A DNA stretch of 64,000 nt from a virus, in the IMG/VR virus record IMGVR_UViG_3300043570_000986, positions 1-64,000 of that record; one strand, given 5' to 3'. The position numbers and the translations under genes were made by a program. Shown here piece after piece: positions 1 to 31,108 of the stretch (positions within the stretch are counted from its first letter, which is position 1; each line of letters starts with the position of its first letter). The notes below the pieces were generated by a model. It had not been told where the DNA came from. It ran no database searches and saw only the letters and a list, made by a program, of their open reading frames with translations.

Positions 1-229
1 CTTTTTTAACATCTTCCCAATAAGAATAATAGTTTTGTTTATCTTCAAATTCATCTAAATAAGCTCCATAACGTAAATTCAAGCCACCATTATATATTTC
101 ATCAACTGCTATTAAAGCACATTGTTTAGCCGAATCTATATAATCTTCCCATCCTAATACTTCGTGAAATACTCTTGTGTGAGGAATATATTTATCAATT
201 AACTCTATTGCTTTTTCTTTTGGCGTCAT
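1..229 (-). CDS. small phage protein (MTPKEKAIEL...), 3' end outside window
   Basis: ATG at 229 after junction motif A; open frame to the window edge; not in ORF track. Confidence 0.75.
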   Translation of the reverse strand, partial: MTPKEKAIELIDKYIPHTRVFHEVLGWEDYIDSAKQCALIAVDEIYNGGLNLRYGAYLDEFEDKQNYYSYWEDVKK

Positions 230-230
230 T

Positions 231-521
231 TTATTTGTTTTTATAATTAATAATGTTTTCTGCATCACCTAATGACAAACCATAACCTATACAATCCATA
301 GGATTTAGCATTTCTTTTGTCTTATAATCTATAAGGTCTTTTAAATAAGTAGGTAACTCATTTGGTAAATTCTCACAATTCCAAAACCACCATTGGTCGC
401 CCATACTTTGTGGTGTTGCGTGTTGGTAGGTAATTCCTAGTTCTTTCATTACTACTTGTGGATGCCTATTTTCTTTACAGTTAATTCCTGCTTCCATAAT
501 GTTAAATCTTAAATGTTTCAT
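231..521 (-). CDS. hypothetical protein, 96 aa
   Basis: ORF track; ends YKNK* in motif A. Confidence 0.8.
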   Translation of the reverse strand: MKHLRFNIMEAGINCKENRHPQVVMKELGITYQHATPQSMGDQWWFWNCENLPNELPTYLKDLIDYKTKEMLNPMDCIGYGLSLGDAENIINYKNK

Positions 522-523
522 AT

Positions 524-649
524 TTATTTGTTTTTATTGATTAATTTTATTTTAATGTAATTCTTGACTATTTTAAAGAATTTAGCTATTTGGTGCATAT
601 CACTTACTGTTATATCAACATTATAAGGATTCCATTTTGTTTTTTTCAT
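524..649 (-). CDS. small hypothetical protein, 41 aa (MKKTKWNPYN...INKNK)
   Basis: Hand-translated; ATGA overlap with upstream gene; ends in motif A. Confidence 0.65.
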   Translation of the reverse strand: MKKTKWNPYNVDITVSDMHQIAKFFKIVKNYIKIKLINKNK

Positions 650-1035
650 ATTTTTTTTATAGATAACCTCATATTATAATCATTTATAATTTCTTGTAAT
701 AATCTTTCAGTATTTTGATATGTTTTTTCTACCCCAGCAAAAAAACCTGCATCATATTTATTTTCAATTAAAATATTTGCTTCTTTTTGCGTAATAGCAT
801 TTCCCCTCATTCTTATACAATCATTATAAAGAATCATCACACTTTCAAATAAATCTTCATGTTTAGTTATTTTGACTTCTATTGAATTGTTTATTTTTAC
901 TAATTCATTTAAAATCTGCTCATCCTCTAAAGTATCTTTCCAACTTCCAATAACACTTAATAATTCATCATTAGCATTAAGTTTTTCAAGTATGGTATAT
1001 ATTTCATTTATTATTTTTAAATCTATTTCACTCAT
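646..1035 (-). CDS. hypothetical protein, 129 aa
   Basis: ORF track, co-oriented with neighbours. Confidence 0.75.
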   Translation of the reverse strand: MSEIDLKIINEIYTILEKLNANDELLSVIGSWKDTLEDEQILNELVKINNSIEVKITKHEDLFESVMILYNDCIRMRGNAITQKEANILIENKYDAGFFAGVEKTYQNTERLLQEIINDYNMRLSIKKI

Positions 1036-1071
1036 ATTAATTTATTTTATTTGTTATTAGTTTTTATTTAT

Positions 1072-1179
1072 TTACATTTTTTCAGCTGTCCAATCATGAA
1101 ATAAATTAGACCATTTTGAGTTAGTAATTAACAAAGGGTGTGCTATACAATTATGTATTATATTCCAAAATCTTTTCAT
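1072..1179 (-). CDS. small hypothetical protein, 35 aa (MKRFWNIIHNCIAHPLL...HDWTAEKM)
   Basis: Hand-translated; ATG 1 nt after the upstream stop. Confidence 0.65.
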   Translation of the reverse strand: MKRFWNIIHNCIAHPLLITNSKWSNLFHDWTAEKM

Positions 1180-1180
1180 A

Positions 1181-1363
1181 TCAGTCTTTCTTATCTAATT
1201 TAATTAATTCATTTAGTGGATAAGATAGCATTGAAACCATAATTGTGGATAGTATAAAGCCAAACCTACCTGACTGTTCCCATTGTGATGGATTCCATTG
1301 CCACATTGTAAAGGAAAAGCAAAAGTAATTCAATAAAATCATTGTTATAATTATTTTTTTCAT
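1181..1363 (-). CDS. small two-TM membrane protein, 60 aa
   Basis: Two hydrophobic stretches. Confidence 0.7.
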   Translation of the reverse strand: MKKIIITMILLNYFCFSFTMWQWNPSQWEQSGRFGFILSTIMVSMLSYPLNELIKLDKKD

Positions 1364-1387
1364 GTTTTTTATTTGTTTTTTAGTTTA

Positions 1388-1609
1388 TTAATTTTGTTTA
1401 AATGTTTGATTATAGTATTCTTCTGCATCATTTTTATAATGACCTGGGGTTGCTGCTATAAACATTTGTCCAGAAATATTAGCATCTATTATCTGTTGCT
1501 TTTCCATTTCTTTGGCTCTATCTATTTCATTTCTATAATTACTCCATTCTATATTAGGTAATGCAAATTCTAATTGTTCAATTAAATATTCAACTGCTGT
1601 TTTTTCCAT
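1388..1609 (-). CDS. MEK(KQ)TAVE-family small protein, paralogue 1
   Basis: Shares TAVE and AKEMEKQQI blocks with 1625..1870 and 2407..2652. Confidence 0.8.
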   Translation of the reverse strand: MEKTAVEYLIEQLEFALPNIEWSNYRNEIDRAKEMEKQQIIDANISGQMFIAATPGHYKNDAEEYYNQTFKQN

Positions 1610-1624
1610 ATTAATCTTGTTTGT

Positions 1625-1870
1625 TTAGTGAGTTTTTTTAAATATTTTATTGTAGTAATCTTCTCCACTTACGTAATCATTAAGACCAGCTTCACATTTT
1701 ACCCCAACATTGAAGCTATTGATAATTTCATATTTTTCTATAATTTTCGCCTCATTTATAATGTTTTTTAATTCTTCAATAAGAATACAAAATTGATACA
1801 TATCACCACCTTTTTTAAGTTCTTTAAATCTGGATTCTATAAATTCTACTGCTGTTTGTTTCTTTTCCAT
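1625..1870 (-). CDS. MEKKQTAVE-family small protein, paralogue 2
   Basis: N-terminus identical to that of 2407..2652; YYNKIFK tail resembles paralogue 1. Confidence 0.8.
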   Translation of the reverse strand: MEKKQTAVEFIESRFKELKKGGDMYQFCILIEELKNIINEAKIIEKYEIINSFNVGVKCEAGLNDYVSGEDYYNKIFKKTH

Positions 1871-1883
1871 TTTTTATTTGTTT

Positions 1884-2030
1884 TTAGTTATTAATTAAAT
1901 TTATTAAATATGCTAATATTATTATGATTAAAAAAATAGAGATAGTAAGAAACCAAGCTCCTAACCCTAAAATAATGTCAATTCTATCTTTGCTTTTAAA
2001 AAGCATACATTGGTTAAAAAATTGTTTCAT
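1884..2030 (-). CDS. small single-TM protein, 48 aa (MKQFFNQCML...)
   Basis: Hand-translated; ATG follows motif B; long hydrophobic C-terminal half. Confidence 0.6.
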   Translation of the reverse strand: MKQFFNQCMLFKSKDRIDIILGLGAWFLTISIFLIIIILAYLINLINN

Positions 2031-2063
2031 ATTAGTCTTGTTTGTTTTTAATTGTTAAATTTT

Positions 2064-2387
2064 TTATACCAACCTCAACTGACGAAACCAATTTAATATT
2101 CTACTTTTATCTCCACTACCATAAGACCATTTACCCGTAATGATAAAAGCAAAAGGAAGTCCGATAAACATTAGAACAAGAAGTATCAATGCGAATGGAA
2201 GCGTTAATCTAATCCAACCTTTTACTTCTGTTTTTTCTTCTGTATAAAATTCGATACCAAGCGAAATCCACCTATCACACATTTCTTCGCTTGATACTTT
2301 GTTTAGTTCAGGGAATGTTTCTGTGAAATTTGGTATGTAATTCATATCATTATGCGACCATACCCTTCTTAATTTTCTGAATACCAT
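2064..2387 (-). CDS. hypothetical membrane protein, 107 aa
   Basis: ORF track; hydrophobic segment LPFALILLVLMFIGLPFAFII. Confidence 0.75.
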   Translation of the reverse strand: MVFRKLRRVWSHNDMNYIPNFTETFPELNKVSSEEMCDRWISLGIEFYTEEKTEVKGWIRLTLPFALILLVLMFIGLPFAFIITGKWSYGSGDKSRILNWFRQLRLV

Positions 2388-2406
2388 ATTTATTTGTTTT
2401 TAGTTG

Positions 2407-2652
2407 TTAATCTTGTTCAAGTTCACTATCTACATTTCTATTACATTTTGGACACCAATAGCCACCAAATACTCCAGGCACAAATTCTTTATCAAGGTGT
2501 AAACAAATTTCTTGATTATCTATAATCTGTTGTTCCATTTCTTTGGCTTGTTCATAATATTGTTTTTTATCAATATCATATAATGCTGTTTTTGGAATCA
2601 TTCTTTCAAGTCTTTCATATAACCATTCTACTGCTGTTTGTTTCTTTTCCAT
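2407..2652 (-). CDS. MEKKQTAVE-family paralogue 3 with CxH...CxxC C-terminus
   Basis: Paralogous N-terminal half plus CLH...CPKC Zn-ribbon-like tail. Confidence 0.8.
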   Translation of the reverse strand: MEKKQTAVEWLYERLERMIPKTALYDIDKKQYYEQAKEMEQQIIDNQEICLHLDKEFVPGVFGGYWCPKCNRNVDSELEQD

Positions 2653-2653
2653 A

Positions 2654-2911
2654 TTAGTCTTGTTTGTTTAGTGAGTTTTCTTTTTTAGTAGTTGATTCAT
2701 CTATATACTTGTTCTCTGTTTGGTCATTAAGTTCTTTTAATAAAGCATTTGCTAATTCAACAGATTCTTTAGCATATGTATTTACATCCCATCCAGTAAT
2801 GTTTTCTCTAAGATAATTTGCACATAATCCTTGCATAGCTAGTCCTGCAAAATATTCTTTTTTAGTTAATGTTTTAACTTCATCTTTAAAAATTGGTATA
2901 TTCTTTTCCAT
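2654..2911 (-). CDS. conserved small phage protein (LTKKEYFAGLAMQG motif)
   Basis: Motif common in phage hypothetical proteins; ends LNKQD* (motif B). Confidence 0.8.
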   Translation of the reverse strand: MEKNIPIFKDEVKTLTKKEYFAGLAMQGLCANYLRENITGWDVNTYAKESVELANALLKELNDQTENKYIDESTTKKENSLNKQD

Positions 2912-2912
2912 T

Positions 2913-3311
2913 TTATTTGTTTTTAGTAATTTCTATTAGTTTATCTAAGCATGCTTGTTCTGCTTCTTCATAGGTTTCATAACTCCATTCATCTCCTGGT
3001 TTATCAATTGACCATTCCTCAATAGTCCAAGGTTTCCATATTCTCCAACTAAAACCTACTGAACCATCAACTTCAGTACATTCTGTAGTTATTTCTGAGT
3101 AATATTCTTTTTCTCTAAACCATCTAAATGCTTGTGAGAATGTTGGTGCTGAACAAGATGGTGCATCCAGTGGTTGATTACAAAATGTTCCATATTGATT
3201 TTCATTATTTGGGAAATATAAACTTTCATCATAAAATCCAAAACAAGGTTCATCAAATCCTAACTCTTTAACAGCTAAGGCTTGTTCATAGGTTATAAAT
3301 TCTTTTTTCAT
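2913..3311 (-). CDS. conserved Bacteroidota-phage hypothetical protein (MKKEFITYEQALA...APTFSQAFRWFRE)
   Basis: ORF track; ends TKNK* (motif A). Confidence 0.8.
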   Translation of the reverse strand: MKKEFITYEQALAVKELGFDEPCFGFYDESLYFPNNENQYGTFCNQPLDAPSCSAPTFSQAFRWFREKEYYSEITTECTEVDGSVGFSWRIWKPWTIEEWSIDKPGDEWSYETYEEAEQACLDKLIEITKNK

Positions 3312-3335
3312 TTTTTTATTTGTTTTTAGTTGTTA

Positions 3336-3593
3336 TTAGTCTTGTTTGTTTAGTCTTTTAATAATTACTTTTAAGGTTCTCCCATCATCTTGATAAGATA
3401 GTTCTACTTTACAATAATGGTCACTATATGCTCTACCATATTCATCAATGACTTCAAATCTTGTTAATGTTTGGTCTTTAGCCATATCTTCTTGGCATTG
3501 AGTGTAGCCATCTATATATGCAAGTCTTTCAGATGATGATACATTATTACAATATTTTTTAAATAACTGTTCTATTTCTTCTTTGCTTTTCAT
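3336..3593 (-). CDS. hypothetical protein, 85 aa, possibly chimeric
   Basis: ORF track; ends LNKQD* (motif B). Confidence 0.8.
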   Translation of the reverse strand: MKSKEEIEQLFKKYCNNVSSSERLAYIDGYTQCQEDMAKDQTLTRFEVIDEYGRAYSDHYCKVELSYQDDGRTLKVIIKRLNKQD

Positions 3594-3609
3594 GTTATTA
3601 GTTTTAAAT

Positions 3610-3643
3610 AAACTCTTACAAGATATTTCACAAGTAAGAGTTT
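3610..3643. terminator. intergenic hairpin at the head of the small-gene array
   Basis: aaactcttac/gtaagagttt 10-bp inverted repeat. Confidence 0.45.
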
Positions 3644-3648
3644 AATTG

Positions 3649-4080
3649 TTATTTGTATTTTTTAAATGTTTTTAATAAAGTATCATATTTAATACCACCT
3701 GCTAATATTTTTTTATTATTTGTAGTATTTAAATTAATACTTGATATAATATACCAATTATCAATTGGAGCTTCAGTATTAATCATAATTGTTTTAGTAT
3801 TAGTTCCTTTGTAAGATACTGATATTTCAAATTCAGTATTATAATCTAAAGATAATATAAAATTTGATGATGCTTTAACACTTGTTAATACTCCTGTATT
3901 GTAATTAACAATATCTAATAAATATGATGTATCAGGTATTTCTTGATTATTAATTTTAATTGTTAAATCTAATTTAACTACTTTATTTGTTTGTGCTACT
4001 GCACATGCTGTCATTAAAACTATTAATAACCCTGTTACTAATAATTTGATTTTCATTGATTCTGTCATTTGAGTTTTCAT
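3649..4080 (-). CDS. exported or lipid-anchored beta-rich protein, 143 aa
   Basis: N-terminal signal-like segment KIKLLVTGLLIVLMTAC. Confidence 0.75.
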   Translation of the reverse strand: MKTQMTESMKIKLLVTGLLIVLMTACAVAQTNKVVKLDLTIKINNQEIPDTSYLLDIVNYNTGVLTSVKASSNFILSLDYNTEFEISVSYKGTNTKTIMINTEAPIDNWYIISSINLNTTNNKKILAGGIKYDTLLKTFKKYK

Positions 4081-4380
4081 ATAATTTTAGTTTAATTGGT
4101 TTAAGTTTAAAAAAACAGGCTTTGCACCTGATTGAATGCTTCATGTTTATGTATTAAAGACCCATAAAATCTAATAATACAACTACCTAGTTAAAGGACA
4201 GCATTTGAGTAATTTGTTAAATGTAAGTTAATGCACAAACAGGTACATGACTACCTTACAAACATTAACTTAACATTTAACTAATATTTTAAATAAAGGT
4301 TTAACCAACTAACCTCAAAGGAGTGTTTTTACAGAACACTTAAACTGTATTAGGACAACTATCACATAACCTAATATAAG

Positions 4381-4454
4381 GTATGATAGTGGGAATTGAA
4401 CCCACTACCTCCTGATTAATATCAGGTGCTCATACACAACGAGCTATATCATAC
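4381..4454 (-). tRNA. tRNA-like gene or pseudo-tRNA with a 6-nt anticodon loop; isotype undetermined
   Basis: Cloverleaf: GTATGATA/TATCATAC acceptor, GCTC/GAGC D-stem, CCTGA/TCAGG anticodon stem, GTGGG-TTCAATT-CCCAC T-arm; no D-loop GG, no encoded CCA. Confidence 0.65.
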
Positions 4455-4466
4455 TGTTTAACTTAA

Positions 4467-4913
4467 TTATGCATTAAGTTTTGCTGAAGCTGTTGAAGCT
4501 GCAACTGGTGCTTCACTTGTGTAAGCTACTAACACATTTTGTGCATTCAAATCAGTTGTGAATTCTGTTTCACGATAAATTGGTTGACCATTAAATAATA
4601 AGATACCACCATCTTTGCCTTTACGCTTAGGCTCTTGATTAGCACGGAATGGATTCTTAGTTGTAGATTCTTTAACAATAATCTTACCATCTAAGATTTC
4701 ACCTGCTACTAATGGAGCTGCATCAAATGCTTCTCTACTAGTTGAACGAAGTGCTGATAATACAGTTACTTTGTCTAATGCACCACTTCTATCTACAAAT
4801 GTAGATTGTACTGTGTACCATCCATACTCTTTACCATCTTTTGCACTGATTCCTGTTGAATTAAATACTAAACCTGTTGTTTTGTTTGCGATCACTACTA
4901 CTGAATTTTTCAT
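4467..4913 (-). CDS. conserved crAss-like protein, possible ssDNA-binding protein
   Basis: Beta-rich with aromatic/basic residues, flexible Ala-rich tail, codon usage like highly expressed genes; function inferred. Confidence 0.6.
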   Translation of the reverse strand: MKNSVVVIANKTTGLVFNSTGISAKDGKEYGWYTVQSTFVDRSGALDKVTVLSALRSTSREAFDAAPLVAGEILDGKIIVKESTTKNPFRANQEPKRKGKDGGILLFNGQPIYRETEFTTDLNAQNVLVAYTSEAPVAASTASAKLNA

Positions 4914-5155
4914 AATTTTTGTTTTTTTAATTGTTTAATTGATTTTTTAATTGATTTATTTGATTTTAACAAAGTTTAAGTCTGTGTTAAGACTATTGAA
5001 CAATTAACAAGATGATATAACTAATATATTGGCTATGCCAGAGTGCTATAAATAGCTAATTAGAATATATGAGAGCTTATTAGTTGTTGAATATTGTTTA
5101 AGATAATGTTATTGTATTAAGTCTAGCTTCTAAAGCTAACCAATATTGTACAAAC

Positions 5156-5428
5156 TTAACGTAGTTCTTTTCTGCTTCTGTAATTGTCAGCATGATTTTT
5201 AGATTTTTTTTCATCAACCCATAATGCAAGTATAATACCTGAGTATAAGATGAAGATAATTAATATTCCTATTGCTAAGGTTGGAATAATTGACCATAAA
5301 CTTATTATTGATACTAGTCCTAATCCTATATGTGCAGATAATTGTCTGGCATATGTTAAATCAGCTAATACATTGCATCCATACCAAGTTGTTGATATGA
5401 ATGCAATTATAAAGATTGTATTGTCCAT
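5156..5428 (-). CDS. small multi-TM membrane protein, 90 aa
   Basis: Up to three hydrophobic segments, basic tail. Confidence 0.7.
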   Translation of the reverse strand: MDNTIFIIAFISTTWYGCNVLADLTYARQLSAHIGLGLVSIISLWSIIPTLAIGILIIFILYSGIILALWVDEKKSKNHADNYRSRKELR

Positions 5429-5431
5429 TGT

Positions 5432-5626
5432 TTAAGTTGTTAATAATGAAACTGATACACAAATTGATGCCCATATTTGGTCATGACTAGGTTTATTATT
5501 TACATAACCTAATTCACGCTTAATAGTGTTTAATCTATTGTGTACTGAAAATTGATACTCAGGTAATTTAGTAGACCTATTTATAATAGGCCTACCATTC
5601 TTTGTAGTTTTTTGTAATGTGTTCAT
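5432..5626 (-). CDS. hypothetical protein, 64 aa
   Basis: ORF track, co-oriented with neighbours. Confidence 0.6.
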   Translation of the reverse strand: MNTLQKTTKNGRPIINRSTKLPEYQFSVHNRLNTIKRELGYVNNKPSHDQIWASICVSVSLLTT

Positions 5627-5645
5627 GATTGGATAGTTTTTATGA

Positions 5646-5789
5646 TTATTTTCTTGCCCAAGTAGGACATTTATCTACGTTATACTTAACTATAGATTTT
5701 TTTGAAGCACAACTTGTTAATGAAGTCATTGCTATAAGACATACGATTGTTACTAAGTAACACACTGTTAAATACACTAGTTTTTTCAT
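5646..5789 (-). CDS. small lipoprotein, 47 aa (MKKLVY...LTSC-ASKKSIVKYNVDKCPTWARK)
   Basis: Hand-translated; MKK, hydrophobic core and LTSC lipobox. Confidence 0.7.
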   Translation of the reverse strand: MKKLVYLTVCYLVTIVCLIAMTSLTSCASKKSIVKYNVDKCPTWARK

Positions 5790-5811
5790 TTGATTTTTGT
5801 TTTAGATTGAT

Positions 5812-6012
5812 TTAGAAATTGTTTTTTTTGTTGTTAAATTCAATATGTAGAATACCATTTTCATAATATCCTTTAAGAGTATCATTTTTAGTAATAGATT
5901 GATACTCTTCTGGTAAATCTATTTTAACATCTGAAATAATTGTTATAATTATAAGGAATATTCCAGTTATTATAAAATTTACAATAACTGACTGTATTAT
6001 TAATTTTTTCAT
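5812..6012 (-). CDS. membrane-anchored small protein, 66 aa
   Basis: N-terminal TM helix. Confidence 0.7.
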   Translation of the reverse strand: MKKLIIQSVIVNFIITGIFLIIITIISDVKIDLPEEYQSITKNDTLKGYYENGILHIEFNNKKNNF

Positions 6013-6049
6013 TTTTAATAGTTTTTGATTGTTAATAATTATTTAATTT

Positions 6050-6590
6050 AAATCCCCAGGCGACCACCGTTAAGAGATTTTGTATTATTTATTTAGAAAC
6101 CTTGGGCAATTTGTAGACCCCAAGATTCCTCCTTGATAAGTATAATATATTAGTAATTAATTAGATTACCCATATTATAGTATCTCACGTAGCTCTTAAT
6201 GTGTTAATTAGACACCTATCACCATTCTACGATTACAAGTTTTAGTCAACACTTGTTATATCTATTTACAAATCAAGTTGTAAATCTTTTTAATTCATTA
6301 TTGAATTAAAGTATTTTATCTTAAGCACTTGGTTGTAATATTGGAAGTCTAGACCTACTCTACTTTTATTTTCCCAAAGGAAATGGTTAGGTTACTTTGC
6401 TATAAGCCATCTATTACAACTTAGTGCATTAGGAATGTGTTAAGCTTATTAATAGTATTATTTTAAAACGTGACCTGTACCTGCAACTGACCACAGTTTA
6501 GCATTAAATGGTATTTTACAGCAATCATCTTAAAATTGAAAGTTTACCCAATTAAGGTAGAATTCCCTTTGAGAATTCTTTAGTTTATTA
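6050..6590. ncRNA. candidate large structured non-coding element
   Basis: No ORF; at least eight local and long-range inverted repeats. Confidence 0.4.
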
Positions 6591-6857
6591 GTTAATCTGT
6601 TTATTTTTAATGAGTGGTAAGTTCATTTATTTTCAACAAGCTAATAAACGACACTACATCTGAGTGCCATACTTTCTGTTTTAAACTATTAAATAAGCTA
6701 TGTATATAATAGGGTAAGTTATAATGAGGTTAATTGAAAAAGAGGTGAAATGTATTGGAAGGGAAGTGTAACCCACTGATACCAACACTTTACTACAATT
6801 TGTAGCAATTGTTTGCTATATATTGTCCAACATTTGTATATTATTTGTTAGTCAACT

Positions 6858-6881
6858 AATAAACAACTCCCCGAAGGGGGA
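6858..6881 (-). terminator. C(UUCG)G hairpin terminator after 6884..7129
   Basis: Minus strand CCCC-TTCG-GGGA followed by GTTGTTTATT. Confidence 0.6.
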
Positions 6882-6883
6882 TA

Positions 6884-7129
6884 CTATAAGGTAAAACTCC
6901 TTATAGCATCCTTAGCATTGAATAATACATATGCTTCAGCATCTAATGTATTACCTTTAGCATCTTCAAGTCCTTTCTTCAAGTATGCAGGCTTGCTCTC
7001 ATCAAATTTATGAGCAACAATAATCTTGATACCTTTAGCAGTACCAAAAGCATGCTTACCTTCAGTGTACTGGTTGAATTCAATAGTTTCAACATCTAAC
7101 ATTTCTTTAAAATCTTGTAATGAGATCAT
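6884..7129 (-). CDS. hypothetical protein, 81 aa; first gene of the leftward unit
   Basis: ORF track; followed by a terminator. Confidence 0.8.
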   Translation of the reverse strand: MISLQDFKEMLDVETIEFNQYTEGKHAFGTAKGIKIIVAHKFDESKPAYLKKGLEDAKGNTLDAEAYVLFNAKDAIRSFTL

Positions 7130-7215
7130 GATAGTTTTTGCAGGGAACAGAGGTTTGGTTTTCCTGCTAAATTTAGGTAGGGGGGGTGTTTTGGGGATGC
7201 CCCAAATCCTCGATT

Positions 7216-7286
7216 ACACAAATTTTTTTAAAAAACTATTTTTTCAAATCTTCAATCACACAAAATTTTTTAAAAAATTATTTTTT
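7216..7286. repeat. 29-bp imperfect direct repeat x2 (A/T tracts) at the strand-divergence point
   Basis: 7216-7244 vs 7258-7286, 2 mismatches, 42-bp period. Confidence 0.75.
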
Positions 7287-7409
7287 GTAACAAATTTAAT
7301 GTAGGATTGTTACAACATTATGGCCCATATATTAGCTTAATGTAGTATATTTCATACATTATATATAACATATTAGCTATATTCTATGGTACTCAATTTA
7401 CAATACTTA

Positions 7410-7441
7410 TTTGGTTATTAAGTACTTAATGATTAACTTTA
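7410..7441 (+). promoter_or_regulatory. Bacteroidota primary-sigma promoter
   Basis: TTTG-N20-TAACTTTA; ATG 4 nt downstream. Confidence 0.65.
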
Positions 7442-7445
7442 GGGC

Positions 7446-7658
7446 ATGGAAATTAAGATATTACACCGTACTCCAGATCCTGATCATACTACTATTGTAC
7501 TAGGAGTCATACATCATGTAGTTACTACAGTAGAATATGCTGAGATAATTAAACCTGCTACTAGAGTAGAAGGCTCTGGTTCTGATTATGTCAAAGCTAG
7601 AAACAAGATATTACAAGAGTATTTTATTAATGGACCTAAAGAACAATTTAGTTGGTAA
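7446..7658 (+). CDS. hypothetical protein, 70 aa
   Basis: ORF track. Confidence 0.7.
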   Translation: MEIKILHRTPDPDHTTIVLGVIHHVVTTVEYAEIIKPATRVEGSGSDYVKARNKILQEYFINGPKEQFSW

Positions 7659-7780
7659 TGGCTAGTACATCAGAATTTGAACAACAACAGTTTTGGGAAG
7701 ATAAACCTATTGAGGTTATCTTAGGGGATAACTCTTCCTGGGAATTAACAAATAAGCATAATAATGAGAACAAAATCTAA
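7658..7780 (+). CDS. small acidic protein, 40 aa (MASTSEFEQQ...)
   Basis: Hand-translated; TAATG coupling; fills the gap between neighbours. Confidence 0.55.
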   Translation: MASTSEFEQQQFWEDKPIEVILGDNSSWELTNKHNNENKI

Positions 7781-7976
7781 GAATTTTAATGACTCCCAGG
7801 TAAAAGGAATATTACCTGATGGATCAATATACCTTAAAATGGGTGTAACCAAGAAACACTATAATGATAAACTAGATTATGAAGATATGGATCAGATTAA
7901 TGAGAGTTTACTTATGGCTGAAAAAATTAACAAATTTTATTTATTAACAGGGACTAGTCCTATAGTTGAGGAGTAA
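7764..7976 (+). CDS. hypothetical protein, 70 aa
   Basis: ORF track. Confidence 0.7.
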   Translation: MRTKSKNFNDSQVKGILPDGSIYLKMGVTKKHYNDKLDYEDMDQINESLLMAEKINKFYLLTGTSPIVEE

Positions 7977-7978
7977 TT

Positions 7979-8161
7979 ATGAAATTGATATATGATTTAC
8001 AATCAATACCAAAAGATATGAGTATTGAAGAATTTTTAAACTTTGTACATACTGAAAAAATAGTTTTCTGGGATTCTTCTAGGGGAGGTGGTATAGCTCC
8101 AATAGTTGAACCAGATTCAGGTTTACAAATTAAAGATGTTTCTAAAGATTTAACATCTTAA
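7979..8161 (+). CDS. hypothetical protein, 60 aa
   Basis: ORF track. Confidence 0.7.
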   Translation: MKLIYDLQSIPKDMSIEEFLNFVHTEKIVFWDSSRGGGIAPIVEPDSGLQIKDVSKDLTS

Positions 8162-8162
8162 A

Positions 8163-8194
8163 TTAGGATATTGTCTAAAAATAGTGTATATTTA
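8163..8194 (+). promoter_or_regulatory. promoter upstream of candidate ncRNA
   Basis: TTAG-N20-TATATTTA. Confidence 0.5.
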
Positions 8195-8199
8195 AATGT

Positions 8200-8528
8200 A
8201 CTCTAACTTAAACAGTTAGTCACCAGGGAACACCTAATAAGTTAACACCTGGTTAGAAGTTGGATAGTAGTCCGCACTCTTGAAATAATAGAGATTATAG
8301 CAGACAAGGTTTCTCCAATAGGTACAAAAAAGGTTATAAGTGAAATTCTATAGCTGCTACAAGAGGTATGAAGTATCCTCCTGAATTAACAGGATCAAAG
8401 TAAGCAGACACCTAGGCAACTAGGGAGGGTTAAAGACAGATAGATATAAGTTTATAATTAATCCAAACATCTAGTGTACAAACTGGAAGGGGAATATTAT
8501 GTCTTGTAGATAACTAAGTTAGTTATAT
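8200..8528 (+). ncRNA. candidate ~330-nt structured ncRNA
   Basis: Own promoter, no ORF, about 10 stems including CCTAG-GCAA-CTAGG (GNRA loop). Confidence 0.55.
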
Positions 8529-8534
8529 AATTTA

Positions 8535-8566
8535 TTTGGTTATTATAATTAAATCAGTTATATTTG
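8535..8566 (+). promoter_or_regulatory. consensus Bacteroidota promoter
   Basis: TTTG-N20-TATATTTG, exact -33/-7 consensus. Confidence 0.8.
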
Positions 8567-8570
8567 ATGT

Positions 8571-8654
8571 ATGGAATTAAACAATTTAAATTTAGTACAC
8601 CTACTAATAGGATTAGGTATATCAATTTGTGCTTATTTTAAAGATAATAAATAA
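8571..8654 (+). CDS. 27-aa hydrophobic peptide, probably leaderless (MELNNLNLVHLLIGLGISICAYFKDNK)
   Basis: ATG 4 nt after the -7 box; TAATG coupling to the next gene. Confidence 0.55.
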   Translation: MELNNLNLVHLLIGLGISICAYFKDNK

Positions 8655-8974
8655 TGGAATATACACTTAAACTCCCTATATCTAAAAAGACTGAATATCT
8701 TATTCAAATGTTAAATCCTGTTATGGGTAATTTAACAGATAAAGAGATTGAGATATTAGTTGTCATTGCTGATAAGCAAATATCTATTATTAATAAGGAT
8801 ACTAGAACAGATGTTCGTATGTTCTTAAATATGGATAAGTTTAACTTTAATAATTATATTAAGAAGTTAGTTACTAAGAAAGTATTACAACAAGTAGATA
8901 GGTTAACTCTTAAAGTTAATCCTAATATTCTACATATCTTAAAACATGATTCAGTTAATTTAAGTTTTGTATAA
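8654..8974 (+). CDS. winged-HTH DNA-binding protein
   Basis: LTDKEIEIL...NNYIKKLVTKKVL pattern. Confidence 0.6.
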   Translation: MEYTLKLPISKKTEYLIQMLNPVMGNLTDKEIEILVVIADKQISIINKDTRTDVRMFLNMDKFNFNNYIKKLVTKKVLQQVDRLTLKVNPNILHILKHDSVNLSFV

Positions 8975-9204
8975 TGAATTCAACTAAAAGTAATATATAT
9001 GAAGAAATATTGGATGAAATTAAAGGTGAATTTACATTGTCTAAAGTGGAACTTGAAAGAATATGTGATTCTCAGTTTAGGGTTATAAGAGATACAATGT
9101 CTAAAAGAGAAGGTAAGGTAGTTCAGTTAATTTACTTAGGTAAGTTTAGACCTACTATTTATAATACAGATTATACTAAACGTAAAAAACTAAAAGATGA
9201 GTAA
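8974..9204 (+). CDS. IHF/HU-like DNA-binding protein
   Basis: Two helices then VQLIYLGKF; typical crAss-like position upstream of TerL. Confidence 0.65.
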   Translation: MNSTKSNIYEEILDEIKGEFTLSKVELERICDSQFRVIRDTMSKREGKVVQLIYLGKFRPTIYNTDYTKRKKLKDE

Positions 9205-19697: not shown

Positions 19698-21149
19698 ATG
19701 CAAATTAGTCCATTACAAATAACAAACATGAATTGGCATGCTGGTCTTACTCAAGACTCTCATTTGTCCACATTCTTTTTAACTGAGCCAGCTATTGCTA
19801 GTCAAGTTATCACTCGTATTTATAACAAACAAAATGGTTATAAAAATGCTCTTTCTTTCTTAACAGGTGGAATGGGTAAAGCTAAAGAAATTGATGGTAT
19901 CCAATATCGTTGGAATATCATTGGTGACTCTCGCAAAGCAATATCTATTACTCGTTCAGTATTTGATGCTGCTAGTTCAGTAGGTATTAACGCTACAACT
20001 TTTAAAATTGGTGTAGGTGAGAAATGGTTCTCAGAAGGTGACGTTTTATTATTTGACAGTCCAGATTATAAAGCTCGTGTAATTTCTGAACCAATTTATG
20101 ACGGTGCTGATTACATCTTAGTATGTCAATTAGTTACTGCAGATATCACTAAATCTGTACCTGCTACTTTAGTAACAGTTGGTAAAGAGGTATCTAAAGA
20201 ATACAACATTGTAGAACATGATCATTCTCGTACATCAGGTGAAACTCACTATGCTACACCAATGATGTTAGAAAATTACATGACTACATTGCGTAAGAAA
20301 TATTCTGTAACTGGTGCTGCTCACAGTCGTGTTATGGTTATCTCTATGTTAAATCCTGAAACTAATGAAAAAACTAACACTTGGGTAAAATATGCTGAGT
20401 GGGAATTTTGGAAGCAATTCATGGATGAAATTGAAGTTATGTTAATGTTTGGTGAATCTAACATTAAATCTAATGGAACAACTGATTTAAAAGGTGCTTC
20501 AGGAAATACAATTTATTCTGGTGCTGGTTTAGAAAATCAAATTGCTCCAGGTAACAAACGTCTTTACACTACATTGAATGAAAAAACTATCCGTGATTTC
20601 ATGGGAGATTTAGCATACAATGGTACTGAAGATGGTCCTCGTGAGTATGTTGCTTTATGTGGTCGTGAATTCATGAACTTATTTGATCAAGCTATGAAGC
20701 GTTCAGCTTCTGCTTTCAACTTAGTTGATAGTAAATTCATCGCAGGTGAAGGACAAAACTTAGAATTACATGGTCAGTTTATGACTTATACAGGTTTAAA
20801 TGGAGATAAAATTACATTAAAAGAGTATAAGCCTTATAATGATACAATGAGAAATCGTTTATTACATCCTCAAACTGGTAAACCAGCAGAGTCTTATAAA
20901 GCGACTTTCTTAAACTTTAAATCTTATAACAAAGGAGAACCAAATATCCAAAAAGTATATTCTAAAGATCGTGAGATGGTAACAACTTACATTGAAGGAA
21001 TGTATGGCCCTTATGGACCTAAGAAGAATGGTTCATCTGCAAGTTCAGTAGATGGTTACACATTTGAAGCAATGACAGAATGTGGAGTTATGTTACGTGA
21101 CCCATCAGATGCTGCTCAATTAATTTTAGATGCTTCTAGCATTAGCTAG
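19698..21149 (+). CDS. major capsid protein (crAss-like)
   Basis: Size, synteny, WHAGLTQDSHL and SGAGLENQI motifs, strong codon bias, downstream terminator. Confidence 0.9.
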   Translation: MQISPLQITNMNWHAGLTQDSHLSTFFLTEPAIASQVITRIYNKQNGYKNALSFLTGGMGKAKEIDGIQYRWNIIGDSRKAISITRSVFDAASSVGINATTFKIGVGEKWFSEGDVLLFDSPDYKARVISEPIYDGADYILVCQLVTADITKSVPATLVTVGKEVSKEYNIVEHDHSRTSGETHYATPMMLENYMTTLRKKYSVTGAAHSRVMVISMLNPETNEKTNTWVKYAEWEFWKQFMDEIEVMLMFGESNIKSNGTTDLKGASGNTIYSGAGLENQIAPGNKRLYTTLNEKTIRDFMGDLAYNGTEDGPREYVALCGREFMNLFDQAMKRSASAFNLVDSKFIAGEGQNLELHGQFMTYTGLNGDKITLKEYKPYNDTMRNRLLHPQTGKPAESYKATFLNFKSYNKGEPNIQKVYSKDREMVTTYIEGMYGPYGPKKNGSSASSVDGYTFEAMTECGVMLRDPSDAAQLILDASSIS

Positions 21150-25850: not shown

Positions 25851-26707
25851 TGATAATAGGTTTTTTAAATACTGTTAAATCTCCAGGAACAATTACTATT
25901 ATTAGTGATGATAGTGGTAATGTAATCCCAGGAGATATTGTTTCTTATGAGAAATTAATAGGAACATTTAATATTGAAGATGTTGTAACTTTTGATATAG
26001 ATTTTACACAAAGAACACCTATAGCAAGTAATGTTACATTATATACTGCTCCTCAGCAAAATATAACTAATTTAAATACTGTAAATAATCTAAATACAGT
26101 AAATAATTTAAATATAGTATTAACTAACTCTTTGTGTTGTATTTCAGAACAAGCTGTTAAGGTATCTAAACTATATTCTATAGGTGATAAGTGTGCTGAT
26201 TCTGAATTACAGAAGTTAAAACTAATGAATGATTGGTTTGAAGCTTTAAGATGTTATAATGCTAATGAAAGTATTAATGCAGAATTTGCATTAACAATTA
26301 CTTATAGTGCTTATACTGCATTATCAAATGTATTAAGAAATTATACAGTTAATGTTAATGGTGTTGAATCTACTTTACCTGGAGATGGTATTAAAACAAG
26401 ATTTGAAATACTTTCAGAATTATTAGATATTGTATTACCTAATAATATTACTAATATAGTTATAGATCCTGATGGTAGAGATGAAAGATATGTTACAATA
26501 TACGTTATAGGATTATGTGATACTGAAAATATTACACTATCAACATCATTAATATCTACAGGAGCATTATTAAGTACTATAAATTTTACTAAATATAAAA
26601 ATGGATTATGTACAGTTTTAAATTGTTTAACAGAAGCTGATTTTAATATTTTACTAAGTAAACTAATGAAAGAATGTGATATTTGTGATTGCCAATTAAC
26701 AACTTAA
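25850..26707 (+). CDS. tail hub-related structural protein
   Basis: Cys-rich, CLTE...CDICDC C-terminus; 18-nt NLNTVN tandem repeat at 26069-26119. Confidence 0.5.
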   Translation: MIIGFLNTVKSPGTITIISDDSGNVIPGDIVSYEKLIGTFNIEDVVTFDIDFTQRTPIASNVTLYTAPQQNITNLNTVNNLNTVNNLNIVLTNSLCCISEQAVKVSKLYSIGDKCADSELQKLKLMNDWFEALRCYNANESINAEFALTITYSAYTALSNVLRNYTVNVNGVESTLPGDGIKTRFEILSELLDIVLPNNITNIVIDPDGRDERYVTIYVIGLCDTENITLSTSLISTGALLSTINFTKYKNGLCTVLNCLTEADFNILLSKLMKECDICDCQLTT

Positions 26708-26718
26708 AATAAAATAAA

Positions 26719-27069
26719 ATGAATTTACAATTCGGAAATCAAAGTAAAAGTTATTTAGACCAGTTACTTAAACAAAATCTTAATAGTTTTAAAGCTTTTA
26801 GTTATCAAAAACTAACAGTTACAGGTACTGCAGCAACTTTAACTGTTCCTGCAAATGCTAAATATGCAGAAATTAGATTAGAATCTACAATTACTGCAAC
26901 TATTGCAGCAAGATATTTAATTACAGGTGGTGTTCCTACAGCAACTGATGGTATGGCTTTAAATAATTTAGATCTATTTGACATAAGTGATTATCAAAAT
27001 CTAGTTAACTTTCAAGTAATACAAACTGGTGCAGGTACTCATACTTTACATATACAATACTATAAATAA
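26719..27069 (+). CDS. small beta-sandwich virion protein
   Basis: ORF track; tail region. Confidence 0.6.
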   Translation: MNLQFGNQSKSYLDQLLKQNLNSFKAFSYQKLTVTGTAATLTVPANAKYAEIRLESTITATIAARYLITGGVPTATDGMALNNLDLFDISDYQNLVNFQVIQTGAGTHTLHIQYYK

Positions 27070-27075
27070 TAAAAC

Positions 27076-27516
27076 ATGATTTCAGCTATTAAAAATATAA
27101 AAAGAGTATTTTCTCAAAATGGAGGAAGTGGTGGAGCTGCTGTTAACTTAGTAGGCTCTCCATGTGAAATCCAATTAGCTGCAAGTGATGAATCTACTGC
27201 TTTAACAACAGGTACATCTAAGGTTAGCTTTAGAATGCCTTACGCTATGACCTTAACAGAAGTTAGAGCTTCTTTAGTTACTGCTCAAGCAAGTGGAACT
27301 ATATTTACAGTAGATATTAATGAGGCAGGAGTTAGTGTTTTATCAACTTTATTAACAATAGATAATACTGAATTAACTAGTGTAACTGCTGCAACACCTC
27401 CTGTAATATCAGATAGTGGTTTAGCAGATGATGCTTTAATAACTATTGATATTGACCAAATAGGAGATGGTACTGCTAAAGGTTTAAAGATATTATTAAA
27501 AGGAACTAGGGCATGA
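27076..27516 (+). CDS. short tail-fibre/appendage protein
   Basis: FRMPYAMTLTEVRAS...AKGLK domain typical of fibre C-termini. Confidence 0.6.
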   Translation: MISAIKNIKRVFSQNGGSGGAAVNLVGSPCEIQLAASDESTALTTGTSKVSFRMPYAMTLTEVRASLVTAQASGTIFTVDINEAGVSVLSTLLTIDNTELTSVTAATPPVISDSGLADDALITIDIDQIGDGTAKGLKILLKGTRA

Positions 27517-29105: not shown

Positions 29106-29117
29106 CAAATAAAAATT

Positions 29118-29378
29118 ATGAAACTAACAGATATAACAAGAGCAGAATACACTACTTATGTAGGACTTCTAACAGTGGAACAAAAAGATGAATTAGTAGG
29201 GCAGATGTATGCTCCAGATTGTTATTTTAATCCTATAATGGATAATGCAGATAATTGGGTTATCTCTATTGAGGAGATGGAATATAACATAAATCCTGTA
29301 TATGCTTGGGTAAAAGATTTAGACTTAATATTGTATATACCTAAAGAAAATCCTTTTCCACCAATTAGTGAAAATTAA
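29118..29378 (+). CDS. small protein, probable fibre chaperone/partner
   Basis: Follows the fibre gene. Confidence 0.55.
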   Translation: MKLTDITRAEYTTYVGLLTVEQKDELVGQMYAPDCYFNPIMDNADNWVISIEEMEYNINPVYAWVKDLDLILYIPKENPFPPISEN

Positions 29379-29383
29379 TAAAT

Positions 29384-30925: not shown

Positions 30926-31092
30926 TGAAAACTTACGAGATTAAATACGAACCAATTACTATTGATGGTAAAGTTATTGATAAATATAACATCTATTATT
31001 ATATAGATAATGTTTTAGAAAATAAAGAATTTTATGGATATAATTTAGAATTACCGTTAATTAAAATAAGAGAAAATTATAATTTAAAATAA
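30925..31092 (+). CDS. 55-aa protein (MKTYEIKYEP...), possible fibre chaperone
   Basis: Hand-translated; TAATG coupling. Confidence 0.6.
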   Translation: MKTYEIKYEPITIDGKVIDKYNIYYYIDNVLENKEFYGYNLELPLIKIRENYNLK

Positions 31093-31108
31093 AAGAACTT
31101 AAAAAACT

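Follow-up and report, generated by a model that had tools for sequence, protein, structure and literature searches.

Recurring A-rich joints between the mini-genes of a crAss-like lake phage: candidate stop/start elements and favoured crossover points

We analysed a window of 64,000 nucleotides (positions 1 to 64,000) of the IMG/VR record IMGVR_UViG_3300043570_000986, an 87,245-bp contig of a crAss-like phage from lake water. The ends of the contig share a 127-bp overlap, so that the contig closes on itself and the array of tiny minus-strand genes at the left end of the window continues into genome positions 85,940-87,118; in all, the array extends leftward from about 3,600, across position 1, as far as about 85,900. 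It comprises about 20 tiny accessory genes (21 genes, 20 junctions) of 15 families, among them six MEK..TAVE and two MTPKEKA paralogues, and keeps a single orientation throughout, which gives it a cassette-like look. The 14 mini-genes that a first-pass annotation had placed in the window were all found, with starts at 3593, 3311, 2911, 2652, 2387, 2030, 1870, 1609, 1363, 1179, 1035, 649, 521 and 229. The array is a hypervariable accessory region heading the leftward (replicative) gene block of the phage; the example of phage phi14:2 makes early expression of this block probable. A Pfam scan of 10 larger proteins among the roughly 50 further minus-strand ones identified helicases, a primase, a 5'-3' exonuclease and a GIY-YIG endonuclease, and no recombinase or integrase family. 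None of the RNA runs searched for the stretch contains it.

Two related motifs, A (ACTAAAAACAAATAA) and B (ACTAAACAAACAAGAYTAA), recur at the gene borders; they are A-rich, G-free and, hybrids included, 15-21 nt long. All the following features lie on the minus strand and are given in leftward order. A hairpin (CTCTTAC..GTAAGAG followed by a T-run, 3606-3640) stands directly before the first array gene and is kept in five of five relatives; read by eye it is terminator-like, and a terminator scan made no call there. The first gene (3336-3593, 85 aa) belongs to a large metagenomic family of mini-proteins, labelled c0 here (MK[ST]KEEIEQL..GYTQCQEDM..; 409 clusters at E<=1e-3), and its last codons, RLNKQD-stop, are motif B. 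This copy (3336-3354) and a copy of A (3316-3330), which ends 4 nt ahead of the ATG at 3311, form the stacked pair at 3316-3354 that had been described earlier. The next gene (2913-3311, 132 aa), whose PHROGs matches are families of unknown function only, ends in EITKNK-stop, and this tail is an exact A (2913-2927) lying 1 nt ahead of the ATG at 2911. An 85-aa gene that is not c0-related follows (2654-2911), with the tail SLNKQD-stop as an exact B (2654-2672), 1 nt ahead of the ATG at 2652. After the MEKKQTAVEW gene (2407-2652, 81 aa), one of the six paralogues, an exact A is fully intergenic (2390-2404): it ends 2 nt ahead of the ATG at 2387, and the upstream stop is 19 nt ahead. A 107-aa gene (2064-2387; phrog_36118, unknown function) is separated from the next by an intergenic A/B hybrid (2032-2052), A-like in its left half and B in its right half with one edit, 1 nt ahead of the ATG at 2030.

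Further left, a hydrophobic 48-aa gene (1884-2030) ends in NN-stop on the first TAA of the next A, which is exact (1874-1888) and lies 3 nt ahead of the ATG at 1870. The MEKKQTAVEF paralogue (1625-1870, 81 aa) ends in KTH-stop, its stop codon being the first TAA of B in a frame other than that of LNKQD; this B is a T variant (1611-1629), 1 nt ahead of the ATG at 1609. The MEKTAVEY paralogue (1388-1609, 73 aa) is followed by an intergenic A with one extra A (1369-1384), 5 nt ahead of the ATG at 1363. Two genes within 1072-1363 (1181-1363, 60 aa; 1072-1179, 35 aa) are joined by a 9-nt remnant of B only, and a copy of A with one mismatch (1047-1061) stands 11 nt ahead of the ATG at 1035. Here begins a pair of genes of 129 and 41 aa (524-1035) that overlap at ATGA, no motif separating them; the second ends in INKNK-stop within A (524-538), and the pair travels as one unit, at 86-100% amino acid identity, in phage genome G006. 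A 96-aa gene (231-521) with the tail YKNK-stop, which is A with two mismatches (231-245), lies 1 nt ahead of the ATG at 229, where the 5' part (1-229) of an 86-aa MTPKEKA gene begins. This gene crosses the contig end to genome position 87,087, and its homologue in G006 spans the junction. An exact 186-bp repeat centred on one joint contains positions 1-127, which duplicate the last 127 bases of the contig. The genome segment 85,940-87,118 adds two exact copies of A and seven motif-bearing junctions.

Altogether, one of A, B or their hybrid, at no more than two edits, is present at 18 of the 20 array junctions, 1-5 nt (once 11 nt) ahead of the ATG. In the window, A is exact four times (3316-3330, 2913-2927, 2390-2404 and 1874-1888), has one mismatch at 524-538 and 1047-1061 and two at 231-245, and carries the extra A at 1369-1384; allowing two mismatches there are 12 matches against 3.1 expected, a number reached in none of 100 shuffles. 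B is exact at 3336-3354, 2654-2672 and 1611-1629, and the four matches in the window, against 0.35 expected, include as the fourth a 3-mismatch copy (2032-2050) that is really the A/B hybrid. The assignment of A to starts in the first-pass annotation thus stands, more weakly at 1035 given the distance of 11 nt, as do its endings (three KNK-stop, two LNKQD-stop, KTH-stop and NN-stop). Its placing of B holds at 2652 and 1609, while the copy before 2030 is the hybrid and the 'loose B' before 1179 is the 9-nt remnant only. Between the copies at 1611 and 2654 there is a single mismatch in 35 nt, a longer match than the 26 nt claimed. Conservation is at the nucleotide level, as had been proposed: in 7 of the 18 motif-bearing junctions the upstream gene ends in frame with the last TAA, in 4 it stops at the first TAA and is out of frame, and in the remaining 7 the motif lies entirely between genes. 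The motif copies remain exact while both flanks are unrelated, and they precede genes of at least 12 unrelated families.

Copies of the motifs with at most one mismatch all lie, genome-wide, inside the array. With two mismatches allowed, A occurs within -35..-1 of 12 of 18 array genes and of 1 of 97 other genes; the motifs do not mark gene starts in general in this phage. The array leaders have A at -3 with a frequency of 0.83 and a G content of about 0 over -20..-1. Their mean folding energy over -30..+21 is -0.24 kcal/mol (18 genes), as compared with -2.01 kcal/mol for the 97 others (p=7e-7). Baez 2019 reports that Flavobacterium does without Shine-Dalgarno sequences and that initiation is promoted by A at -3 and by weakly structured mRNA. 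The A-rich, G-poor and unstructured array leaders match this expectation, in agreement with the earlier suggestion of a Bacteroidota-type start.

The gene content of the array varies among relatives. Five close relatives (84-99% identity in a flanking 148-aa protein) keep the flanking genes, and between two conserved genes they carry 0, 2, 3, 9 or 10 genes, compared with 17 in the window phage; no fixed gene order is kept. Motif windows make up 9.4% of the array and contain 11 of the 33 distinct left ends of homology blocks and 7 of the 32 distinct right ends, an enrichment of 2.3-3.5 times. The majority, 22 left and 25 right ends, are outside these windows; BLAST block ends are also imprecise. 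One cassette, which L003 has and L005 lacks, is flanked by copies of AAGACTAATATGA, a sequence that corresponds to the right half of B together with the ATG. Another, MRKIMYYAW, is 94% identical in two different contexts, and its homology begins at the motif. A one-gene indel between two relatives that are 99% alike is bounded by the 9-nt gene start ATGGAAAAT, not by A or B; an 865-nt gene outside the A/B array is a clean indel at the microhomology AAAACAA..ATGAAT; and further indels lie at other start-proximal microhomologies or inside genes. Indel ends thus cluster at gene starts, enriched in but not confined to the motifs, and breakpoints are scattered over -40..+50 around starts and over different microhomologies. 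The idea that the joints are recombination points is supported by the enrichment and by the hybrid joints, but not in the form of sole crossover points. Since the intergenic space is almost all motif, selection for intact genes alone would place surviving breakpoints near motifs.

The joints also extend beyond close relatives. The head genes of G006 are only 21-27% identical to those of the window phage, yet the two share cassettes that are 82-100% identical at the amino acid level, reordered, and accompanied in G006 by nine copies of A. Joints are shared with other phages of the same lakes; the contig joints seen in lake metagenomes have short sides (20-32 nt) and reveal the joint in further contexts rather than rearrangement inside one population. 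In IMG/VR, B followed by the start codon (TATG) has 62 distinct sites on 56 stretches, one site being in a T4-like genome (G001) that holds three B copies, and in 596 Gb of cellular genomes it did not occur at all. The genes after B at the IMG/VR sites fall into 35 clusters among 60.

Taken together, these observations make it somewhat probable, in our view, that the joints are dual-use stop/start elements for translation without Shine-Dalgarno sequences as well as favoured, non-exclusive crossover points, rather than integron-like sites or demonstrated promoters. The joint closes the upstream gene, often as its last codons (TKNK-stop or LNKQD-stop), because TAA stands in two of its reading frames. 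As it ends 1-5 nt ahead of the next ATG, it provides the next gene with an unstructured leader free of AUG and Shine-Dalgarno sequences and with A at -3, as Bacteroidota ribosomes favour, and it leaves the terminating ribosome beside the next start, an arrangement that would promote translation. About 20 copies in the same orientation, common to other lake phages, would offer ready homology for general or annealing-type recombination, by which whole genes could be deleted, duplicated, reordered and exchanged between phages, a pattern seen directly in the comparisons. Crossovers also use whatever short identity there is at gene starts, as well as conserved intragenic blocks.

A rather unlikely alternative is that the motifs are a passive by-product: conserved last codons and leaders of a few large mini-gene families (LNKQD-stop, TKNK-stop) that were duplicated in tandem, with recombination at any border microhomology and no special role for the joints. 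At the IMG/VR sites, 47 of 61 proteins upstream of B belong to one large mini-protein family and LNKQD-stop is read in frame at 54 of 62; among the best 120 unselected homologues 61 end in LNKQD, the others varying (LDKQD, PLKQD, SNKQD) as by ordinary coding drift. B is therefore first of all the conserved coding tail of one large family, which qualifies the earlier picture of shuffling joints that the variable relatives and the enrichment otherwise uphold. The paralogues in the array, the indels at non-motif repeats and the low share (22-33%) of distinct block ends inside motif windows point the same way. Against the by-product reading, 11 of the 18 motif-bearing joints are out of frame or fully intergenic, the motifs are followed by at least 12 unrelated gene families, and the LNKQD tail is found in at least nine unrelated protein families. 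Hybrid joints, exact copies between unrelated flanks, leaders far less structured than those of other genes and the persisting enrichment of block ends also speak against it.

It is distinctly improbable that A is a promoter, that is, a site for a phage RNA polymerase (the crAss-type virion polymerase, residues ~2300-4215 of a 4215-aa protein) or a phage-modified host polymerase, with each mini-gene on its own short-leader transcript and the cluster driving the downstream replicative block. Where a conserved motif recurs ahead of many small early genes, it is usually a promoter; examples are PeSL, the repeats of halovirus HF2 and P23-45, whose virion two-barrel polymerase has an AT-rich motif at 14 of 23 transcript starts (bioRxiv 10.1101/2022.12.01.518664). 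The promoter of crAss-type virion polymerases is described as unknown, the phi14:2 early transcripts having yielded no common motif, which is compatible with such a function of A. The position of the array at the head of the leftward block and the DFDID sequence in the giant protein also suit a promoter, as does the background level of A in five large records (one T4-like) that lack a clear crAss head protein. However, G006 has its nine A copies and no product matching window 44,675-57,322, nor DFDxD in any of its five ORFs of at least 600 aa, and B is present in a T4-like genome. No copy of A with at most one mismatch lies ahead of any of 50 other leftward genes, and a host-type promoter pattern was not found in the array. 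That all copies lie within 1-11 nt of an ATG is more in keeping with a translational element than with a promoter; promoters so placed would mean nearly leaderless mRNAs, whereas according to Baez 2019 most F. johnsoniae transcripts are leadered. Least probable of all is a dedicated cassette system, in which the joints would be sites of a phage recombinase or nuclease (integron-like, with no known integrase) or RNA-processing sites cutting polycistronic RNA into single-gene messages: the one-way array, the same joint beside many different genes in many phages and the encoded GIY-YIG endonuclease and 5'-3' exonuclease would suit it, but the G-free joints lack inverted repeats and hairpins (folding energy about 0), the 10 larger proteins scanned gave no integrase or recombinase, breakpoints take no fixed position, and joints occur in phages with unrelated cores and no obvious common enzyme.

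The dual-use joints resemble several known systems. In the modular theory of mosaic phages, linkers between modules, such as the lambdoid 'boundary sequences', are short conserved sequences at gene borders, proposed as homologous crossover points for the exchange of unrelated modules. The joints are likewise conserved border sequences and proposed crossover points, but here about 20 copies of the linker occur within 5 kb, and the linker also serves as coding tail and leader and recurs at the 62 metagenomic sites. With the P23-45 polymerase motif they share a strongly conserved AT-rich sequence before many small genes (pre-early in P23-45) of a virion-polymerase phage; unlike it, they abut ATGs and also occur in phages in which no such polymerase was found (G006, T4-like G001). 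The PeSL (promoter-early stem-loop) cassettes of the hyperplastic regions of T4-type phages, as characterized by Arbiol et al. 2010 (PMC2839356), likewise consist of a short repeated regulatory sequence, always in the same orientation, that separates small genes which are non-essential and mostly orphans; here too the region differs among close relatives by insertion, deletion or replacement of whole genes, with recombination between repeats as the proposed cause. PeSL places a sigma-70-type promoter and a terminator hairpin between genes, whereas the joints have neither a hairpin nor a recognisable host promoter, overlap the gene end, abut the next ATG and are common to unrelated phage types. 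The Start-Associated Sequences (SAS) of Cluster K mycobacteriophages, on the account of Pope et al. 2011 (PMC3203893), are, like the joints, short and asymmetric, a few nucleotides ahead of the start (3-7 bp for SAS, 1-5 nt for the joints), in one orientation, restricted to the non-structural part of the genome and placed before different gene families; the upstream stop codon sometimes lies inside, host genomes lack them, and a role in translation initiation is proposed for both. SAS (GGGATAGGAGCCC) holds a Shine-Dalgarno core, is scattered over half the genome, is tied to conserved gene families and has an extra inverted repeat (ESAS) in about half the cases; the joints, in contrast, are A-rich without such a core, lie close together in one hypervariable array, often encode the tail of a protein and are found in phages that are only distantly related. 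The array is a new example of a mode of gene swapping already known in phages, with joints of the same kind as PeSL and SAS.

The virus record is a single contig of 87,245 bp, whose first 64 kb form the window, and sequence comparison showed that its first 127 bases are identical to its last 127; the contig therefore closes on itself. Two features mark it as crAss-like: a major head protein of crAss type and a DFDxD motif in a giant virion protein. The protein encoded at 19,698-21,149 had matches in 145 phage records, the top ones being crAss-like major head proteins at 35-38% identity, and a 4215-aa protein (44,675-57,322) has DFDID at residue 3137, in keeping with the DFDxD-type catalytic motif of the crAss-type virion RNA polymerase named in the phi14:2 abstract. 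The stretch, or part of it, is present in 24 DNA sequencing runs of lake-water or freshwater origin, which come from 22 studies; no RNA run was among those listed. Genes were called as simple ATG-to-stop ORFs, and the comparative material was metagenomic throughout. The replicative block contains, on the minus strand, a GIY-YIG/NUMOD homing-endonuclease-like gene (genome 64,298-65,152; 298-1152 of L001, a later part of the same genome) and a 5'-3' exonuclease (FEN-like) gene (genome 67,154-67,906; L001 3154-3906).

The first-pass annotation had described an array of 14 minus-strand mini-genes joined by two short A-rich sequences, motif A and motif B, that lie just before the ATGs (hereafter joints), and we found the genes and motif copies at the positions it had listed. 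Because the contig is circular, the array goes on, on the minus strand, into genome positions 87,118-85,940. From the gene starting at 3311 to the gene starting at 85,940, 18 of the 20 junctions carry A, B or an A/B hybrid (up to 2 edits), the two exceptions being the joints before 1179 and 649. Every copy is on the minus strand, and the distance from motif end to ATG is 1-5 nt, once 11 nt. In the window, motif A at up to 2 mismatches had 12 matches against 3.1 expected, a number reached by none of 100 shuffles, and motif B at up to 3 mismatches had 4 matches against 0.35 expected. A and B are related: hybrids of the two lie at window 2032-2052 and genome 86,105-86,125, and at genome 86,285 a B-type end (..KQD before the stop) overlaps the start of A.

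At seven junctions the upstream gene stops at the last TAA of the motif (six proteins ending in ..KNK, one in ..LNKQD), at four it stops out of frame at the first TAA (..NN, ..TH, ..QD and ..NN), and at seven the motif is fully intergenic. This mixed placement bears out the earlier suggestion that the motifs are conserved at the DNA level. The copies at 1611 and 2654, previously noted as matching over about 26 nt, are in fact alike over 35 nt with one mismatch. A second ..LNKQD tail belongs to the first array gene (3336-3593), whose B copy is stacked upstream of an intergenic A. The array's 21 genes (3593 to 85,940) make up 15 families: MEK..TAVE with six members, MTPKEKA with two, and 13 singletons. 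Pfam gave no match for any of 10 array proteins; PHROGs matched four of nine, all to families of unknown function, and gave no match for the flanking 148-aa anchor protein. An assembly artefact was discarded as the source of the repeats, since different genes carry the copies and independent IMG/VR contigs have them too. The count of one unit needs care. An exact 186-bp direct repeat (86,477-86,662 = 87,060-87,118 plus 1-127), seen in positions 6477-7245 of L002 (a later part of the same genome, here 86,477-87,245), runs from the tail of an MTPKEKA gene across an A-variant joint into the first part of an MEK..TAVE gene. Because the 127-bp end overlap sits within this repeat, the copy number of the MTPKEKA/MEK..TAVE unit in the true genome is uncertain.

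Could the motifs be a generic translation-start signal, as common before other genes as in the array? The first-pass annotation had named equal frequency before core structural genes as an outcome that would tell against its shuffling proposal, and the counts reject such a generic signal. Among 115 called genes of at least 40 aa, with 35 nt examined before each start, A (up to 2 mismatches) lies upstream of 12 of the 18 array genes and one of the 97 others. Five array genes have an exact A within this distance; at up to 1 mismatch A precedes none of the 97 non-array genes, and all copies at this stringency in the 87-kb genome are within the array. The non-array genes have in common only leaders that are broadly rich in A and poor in G (A at -3 = 0.73), in keeping with a host that makes no use of Shine-Dalgarno sequences. 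The motifs themselves are A-rich and G-free, and there is no G enrichment at -20 to -1 before the phage's gene starts. The array leaders have practically no structure: folding energy from -30 to +21 averaged -0.24 kcal/mol for the array against -2.01 for the other genes (Mann-Whitney p=7e-7), with a median of 0.00 kcal/mol for the array leaders. Flavobacterium johnsoniae mRNAs are described as being without Shine-Dalgarno sequences, with initiation tuned by mRNA structure and an A at -3 (Baez et al. 2019, PMC6847099).

Exact copies of motif B followed by TATG (23 nt) occur at 62 distinct sites in 56 IMG/VR stretches; a search of 596 Gb of bacterial and archaeal genomes found none. For 54 of these 62 sites, B is read in frame by the gene before it, which ends in ..LNKQD. 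The upstream proteins belong in 47 of 61 cases to one family, c0, a large metagenomic mini-protein family that includes the first array gene; the rest include at least nine unrelated families with the same tail. The genes downstream are diverse, with 35 clusters among 60. An unselected search with the window's c0 protein yielded 409 clusters, all metagenomic, and LNKQD ends 61 of the best 120 c0 homologues, the others being drifted variants. Given these ends, B originated as the coding tail of the c0 family and for the most part remains so. The c0 proteins (from loci L009-L064) are themselves mosaic, with a conserved N-terminal part (..GYTQCQEDMADKKYTEED), several unrelated C-terminal parts and a common ..INSLNKQD tail, and their KKYTEED block is also joined to other N-termini; this suggests a second crossover box inside genes. 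Motif A alone was rejected as a tracing probe because it is too simple: a 16-mer of A plus one A occurs in at least 117 IMG/VR stretches, 78 of the 80 listed having one match and 2 having two, and such single chance-like matches abound in IMG/VR.

The joints extend to phages with quite different cores. The five largest records with B all lack a clear crAss head protein; each has 1-3 clustered B copies and no A array. One of the five, G001 (181,588 bp, estimated to be complete), is T4-like, with a T4-type Gp23 scoring 222 bits and 3 B copies. A second phage genome, G006, is complete at 76,304 bp with terminal repeats, and its head genes are 21-27% identical to those of the window phage. Its array has a c0 gene first and 9 A copies (5 exact), and the cassettes that it has in common with the window phage are 82-100% identical in amino acids and stand in a different order. 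The giant polymerase protein had no match in G006, nor was DFDxD present in its five ORFs of at least 600 aa. Outside the array, the structural region at window 26,700-31,500 has 62-99% protein identity to G006, against only 21-27% for the head, portal-like and terminase-like genes, which suggests a recent module exchange between distant podophages.

We used the flanking 148-aa protein (4467-4913) as query for close relatives and obtained five IMG/VR loci at 84-99% identity; one at 36% was left out. All five keep the order of the 148-aa gene, a lipoprotein-like gene, a hairpin, a c0-family gene and, later, the MQESKFKK gene with the genes that follow it. The number of genes between c0 and MQESKFKK is 9, 10, 2, 0 and 3 in the five relatives, compared to 17 in the window phage. 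As in promoter-early stem-loop (PeSL) regions, this is a hyperplastic small-gene region with whole-gene indels between close relatives, and the indels end at or near joints. Loci L003 and L004 are distinguished by a single 229-bp gene flanked by the 9-nt repeat ATGGAAAAT, and a cassette of L003 that locus L005 lacks is flanked by AAGACTAATATGA, made up of B's right half and the ATG. The MRKIMYYAW cassette is 94% identical between the window phage and L005, stands in differing contexts, and its homology begins at the motif. In all pairs the homology upstream of MQESKFKK starts at an A-type motif, 22-39 nt ahead of that gene's ATG. Gene-sized indels also occur outside the A/B array, at other start-proximal repeats, and some breaks fall inside genes, the c0 gene itself being mosaic.

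Block ends were counted in comparisons with 138 other loci (HSPs 70 nt or longer, with 80% identity or more), after removal of 7 loci, 2 from the phage's own genome and 5 duplicate contigs under another id. The ends of homology blocks, which are approximate in BLAST, fell in motif windows in 11 of 33 distinct left and 7 of 32 distinct right cases, with motif windows covering 9.4% of the array. Block ends are thus enriched 2.3-3.5 fold at the motifs and are not exclusive to them. Contigs from four runs had many joints ending at ATGs or motifs (e.g. 2404 to 1394, 229 to 1369, 2652 to 1367 and 3593 to 238). Because their short sides are only 20-32 nt, we read these as the same joints in other contexts and not as rearrangements within a population; uncovered parts (e.g. 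281-560 in X10) were excluded as evidence. In four lake metagenomes, summed contig depth, a rough guide only, was several-fold above that of the neighbours at window 1401-1540, 2521-2660 and 3081-3360, which are conserved parts of the MEK..TAVE and 132-aa families; from this raised depth, many other phages of these lakes seem to carry the blocks.

Possible small-RNA features lie near the array. A tRNA-like gene (window 4381-4453, minus strand; Rfam tRNA, 46.8 bits; anticodon not named by ARAGORN) is flanked by the 148-aa gene and the lipoprotein-like gene, and an Rfam gathering search of the window and genome 80,001-87,245 found nothing beyond it. Directly past the array, genome 85,130-85,330 (minus strand; L002 about 5130-5330) is GC-richer, without ORFs and without Rfam match, and looks structured. 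The relatives carry differing pieces in this slot, tRNA-like sequence among them, and it may be a variable small-RNA slot.

The joint, then, closes upstream genes in two of the three frames and adjoins the next ATG. It is array-specific, gene content in the region is hypervariable, and distantly related phages carry the same joints and cassettes. Bacteroidota ribosomes do not use Shine-Dalgarno sequences, and the joint most likely serves as a portable leader that is unstructured, has no Shine-Dalgarno sequence and couples stop and start tightly. Being reiterated and shared between phages, it would also be a favoured substrate for homologous or annealing-type recombination. If the translational role is true, the joint is a natural portable leader for Bacteroidota that could be used in expression tools for Flavobacteria. 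For annotation, tiny genes in such arrays become callable from their joints, and the mini-proteins (15 families, none of known function) are candidate factors for taking over the host early on or for countering its defences. It is a good deal less likely that the joints are an evolved, community-wide standard connector kept by unrelated lake phages, crAss-like and T4-like, and we consider this improbable. Under such a connector, a mini-gene from a co-infecting phage would be expressed at once and then passed on; if true, this would amount to a recombinase-independent exchange of cassettes, common to phages, for accessory (perhaps anti-defence) genes.

The evidence argues against promoter, PeSL-type or integron-type elements as an explanation of the joints: they are strictly adjacent to ATGs, they are without hairpin or host promoter pattern, and the motifs are present in phages in which no crAss-type polymerase was found. 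A promoter role keeps a small probability, and a bolder version of the connector idea would make motif A the early promoter or processing signal of these podophages as well. Against a promoter, the Bacteroidetes -33/-7 host-type pattern had 3 matches in 64 kb compared to 4.4 expected and none in 1-8000, and a sigma-70-type scan gave 56 matches compared to 64.6 in shuffles, with nothing above chance in the array. Nor is the motif confined to phages with a matching polymerase, as the A copies of G006 and the B copies of T4-like G001 indicate; a polymerase-domain homology search of five records also gave no match, an empty result that is weak on its own. In the phi14:2 study, the early genes are those of the entire replicative block, and no upstream motif common to them was reported (bioRxiv 10.1101/2020.03.07.982082).

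PeSL cassettes (PMC2839356) resemble the array in modular shuffling. Their feature is a host-type promoter plus a hairpin, and the joints show neither; the three terminator-like stem-loop sites in 1-9000 are all outside the array, and the motifs are G-free. An integron-like system was rejected, as the joints show no attC-like inverted repeats or hairpins (no self-complementarity, folding energy about 0). No tyrosine-recombinase integrase appeared in a Pfam scan of 10 array proteins and 10 of about 50 further minus-strand proteins, larger ones of the replicative block. The Start-Associated Sequences (SAS) of Cluster K mycobacteriophages (PMC3203893) look much like the array: a short asymmetric repeat a few nt before starts, in one orientation, in the non-structural half only. 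Absence or rarity in cellular genomes is a further likeness, which holds here for B plus TATG. The SAS consensus, however, is GGGATAGGAGCCC with a Shine-Dalgarno core, and the joints have neither core nor consensus. Without promoter and hairpin, and without this core and consensus, the joints fail the defining features of both PeSL and SAS.

No cultured relative of the array was found among the phage records searched: blastn of window 1-4200 against 50,697 phage records gave only two matches of 74-85 nt, to huge uncultured phages, tblastn with the 81-aa MEKKQTAVEW protein gave no match in phage records, and the 132-aa protein matched 4 records at no more than 43% identity. Full-text literature searches found neither motif string nor INSLNKQD (LNKQD alone occurs in 6 unrelated papers), and the literature retrieved on early-gene motifs of crAss-like phages and on hyperplastic regions in Bacteroidetes phages does not describe these joints. 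The 'linker' idea of modular phage evolution holds that short conserved border sequences are exchange points for unrelated genes; to our knowledge, few cases are well documented. In this array such a sequence is plain to see: about 20 copies stand within 5 kb, where they encode protein tails and adjoin the next start codon. It is common to phages of the same lakes with unrelated cores, and close relatives differ there by 0 to 17 genes.
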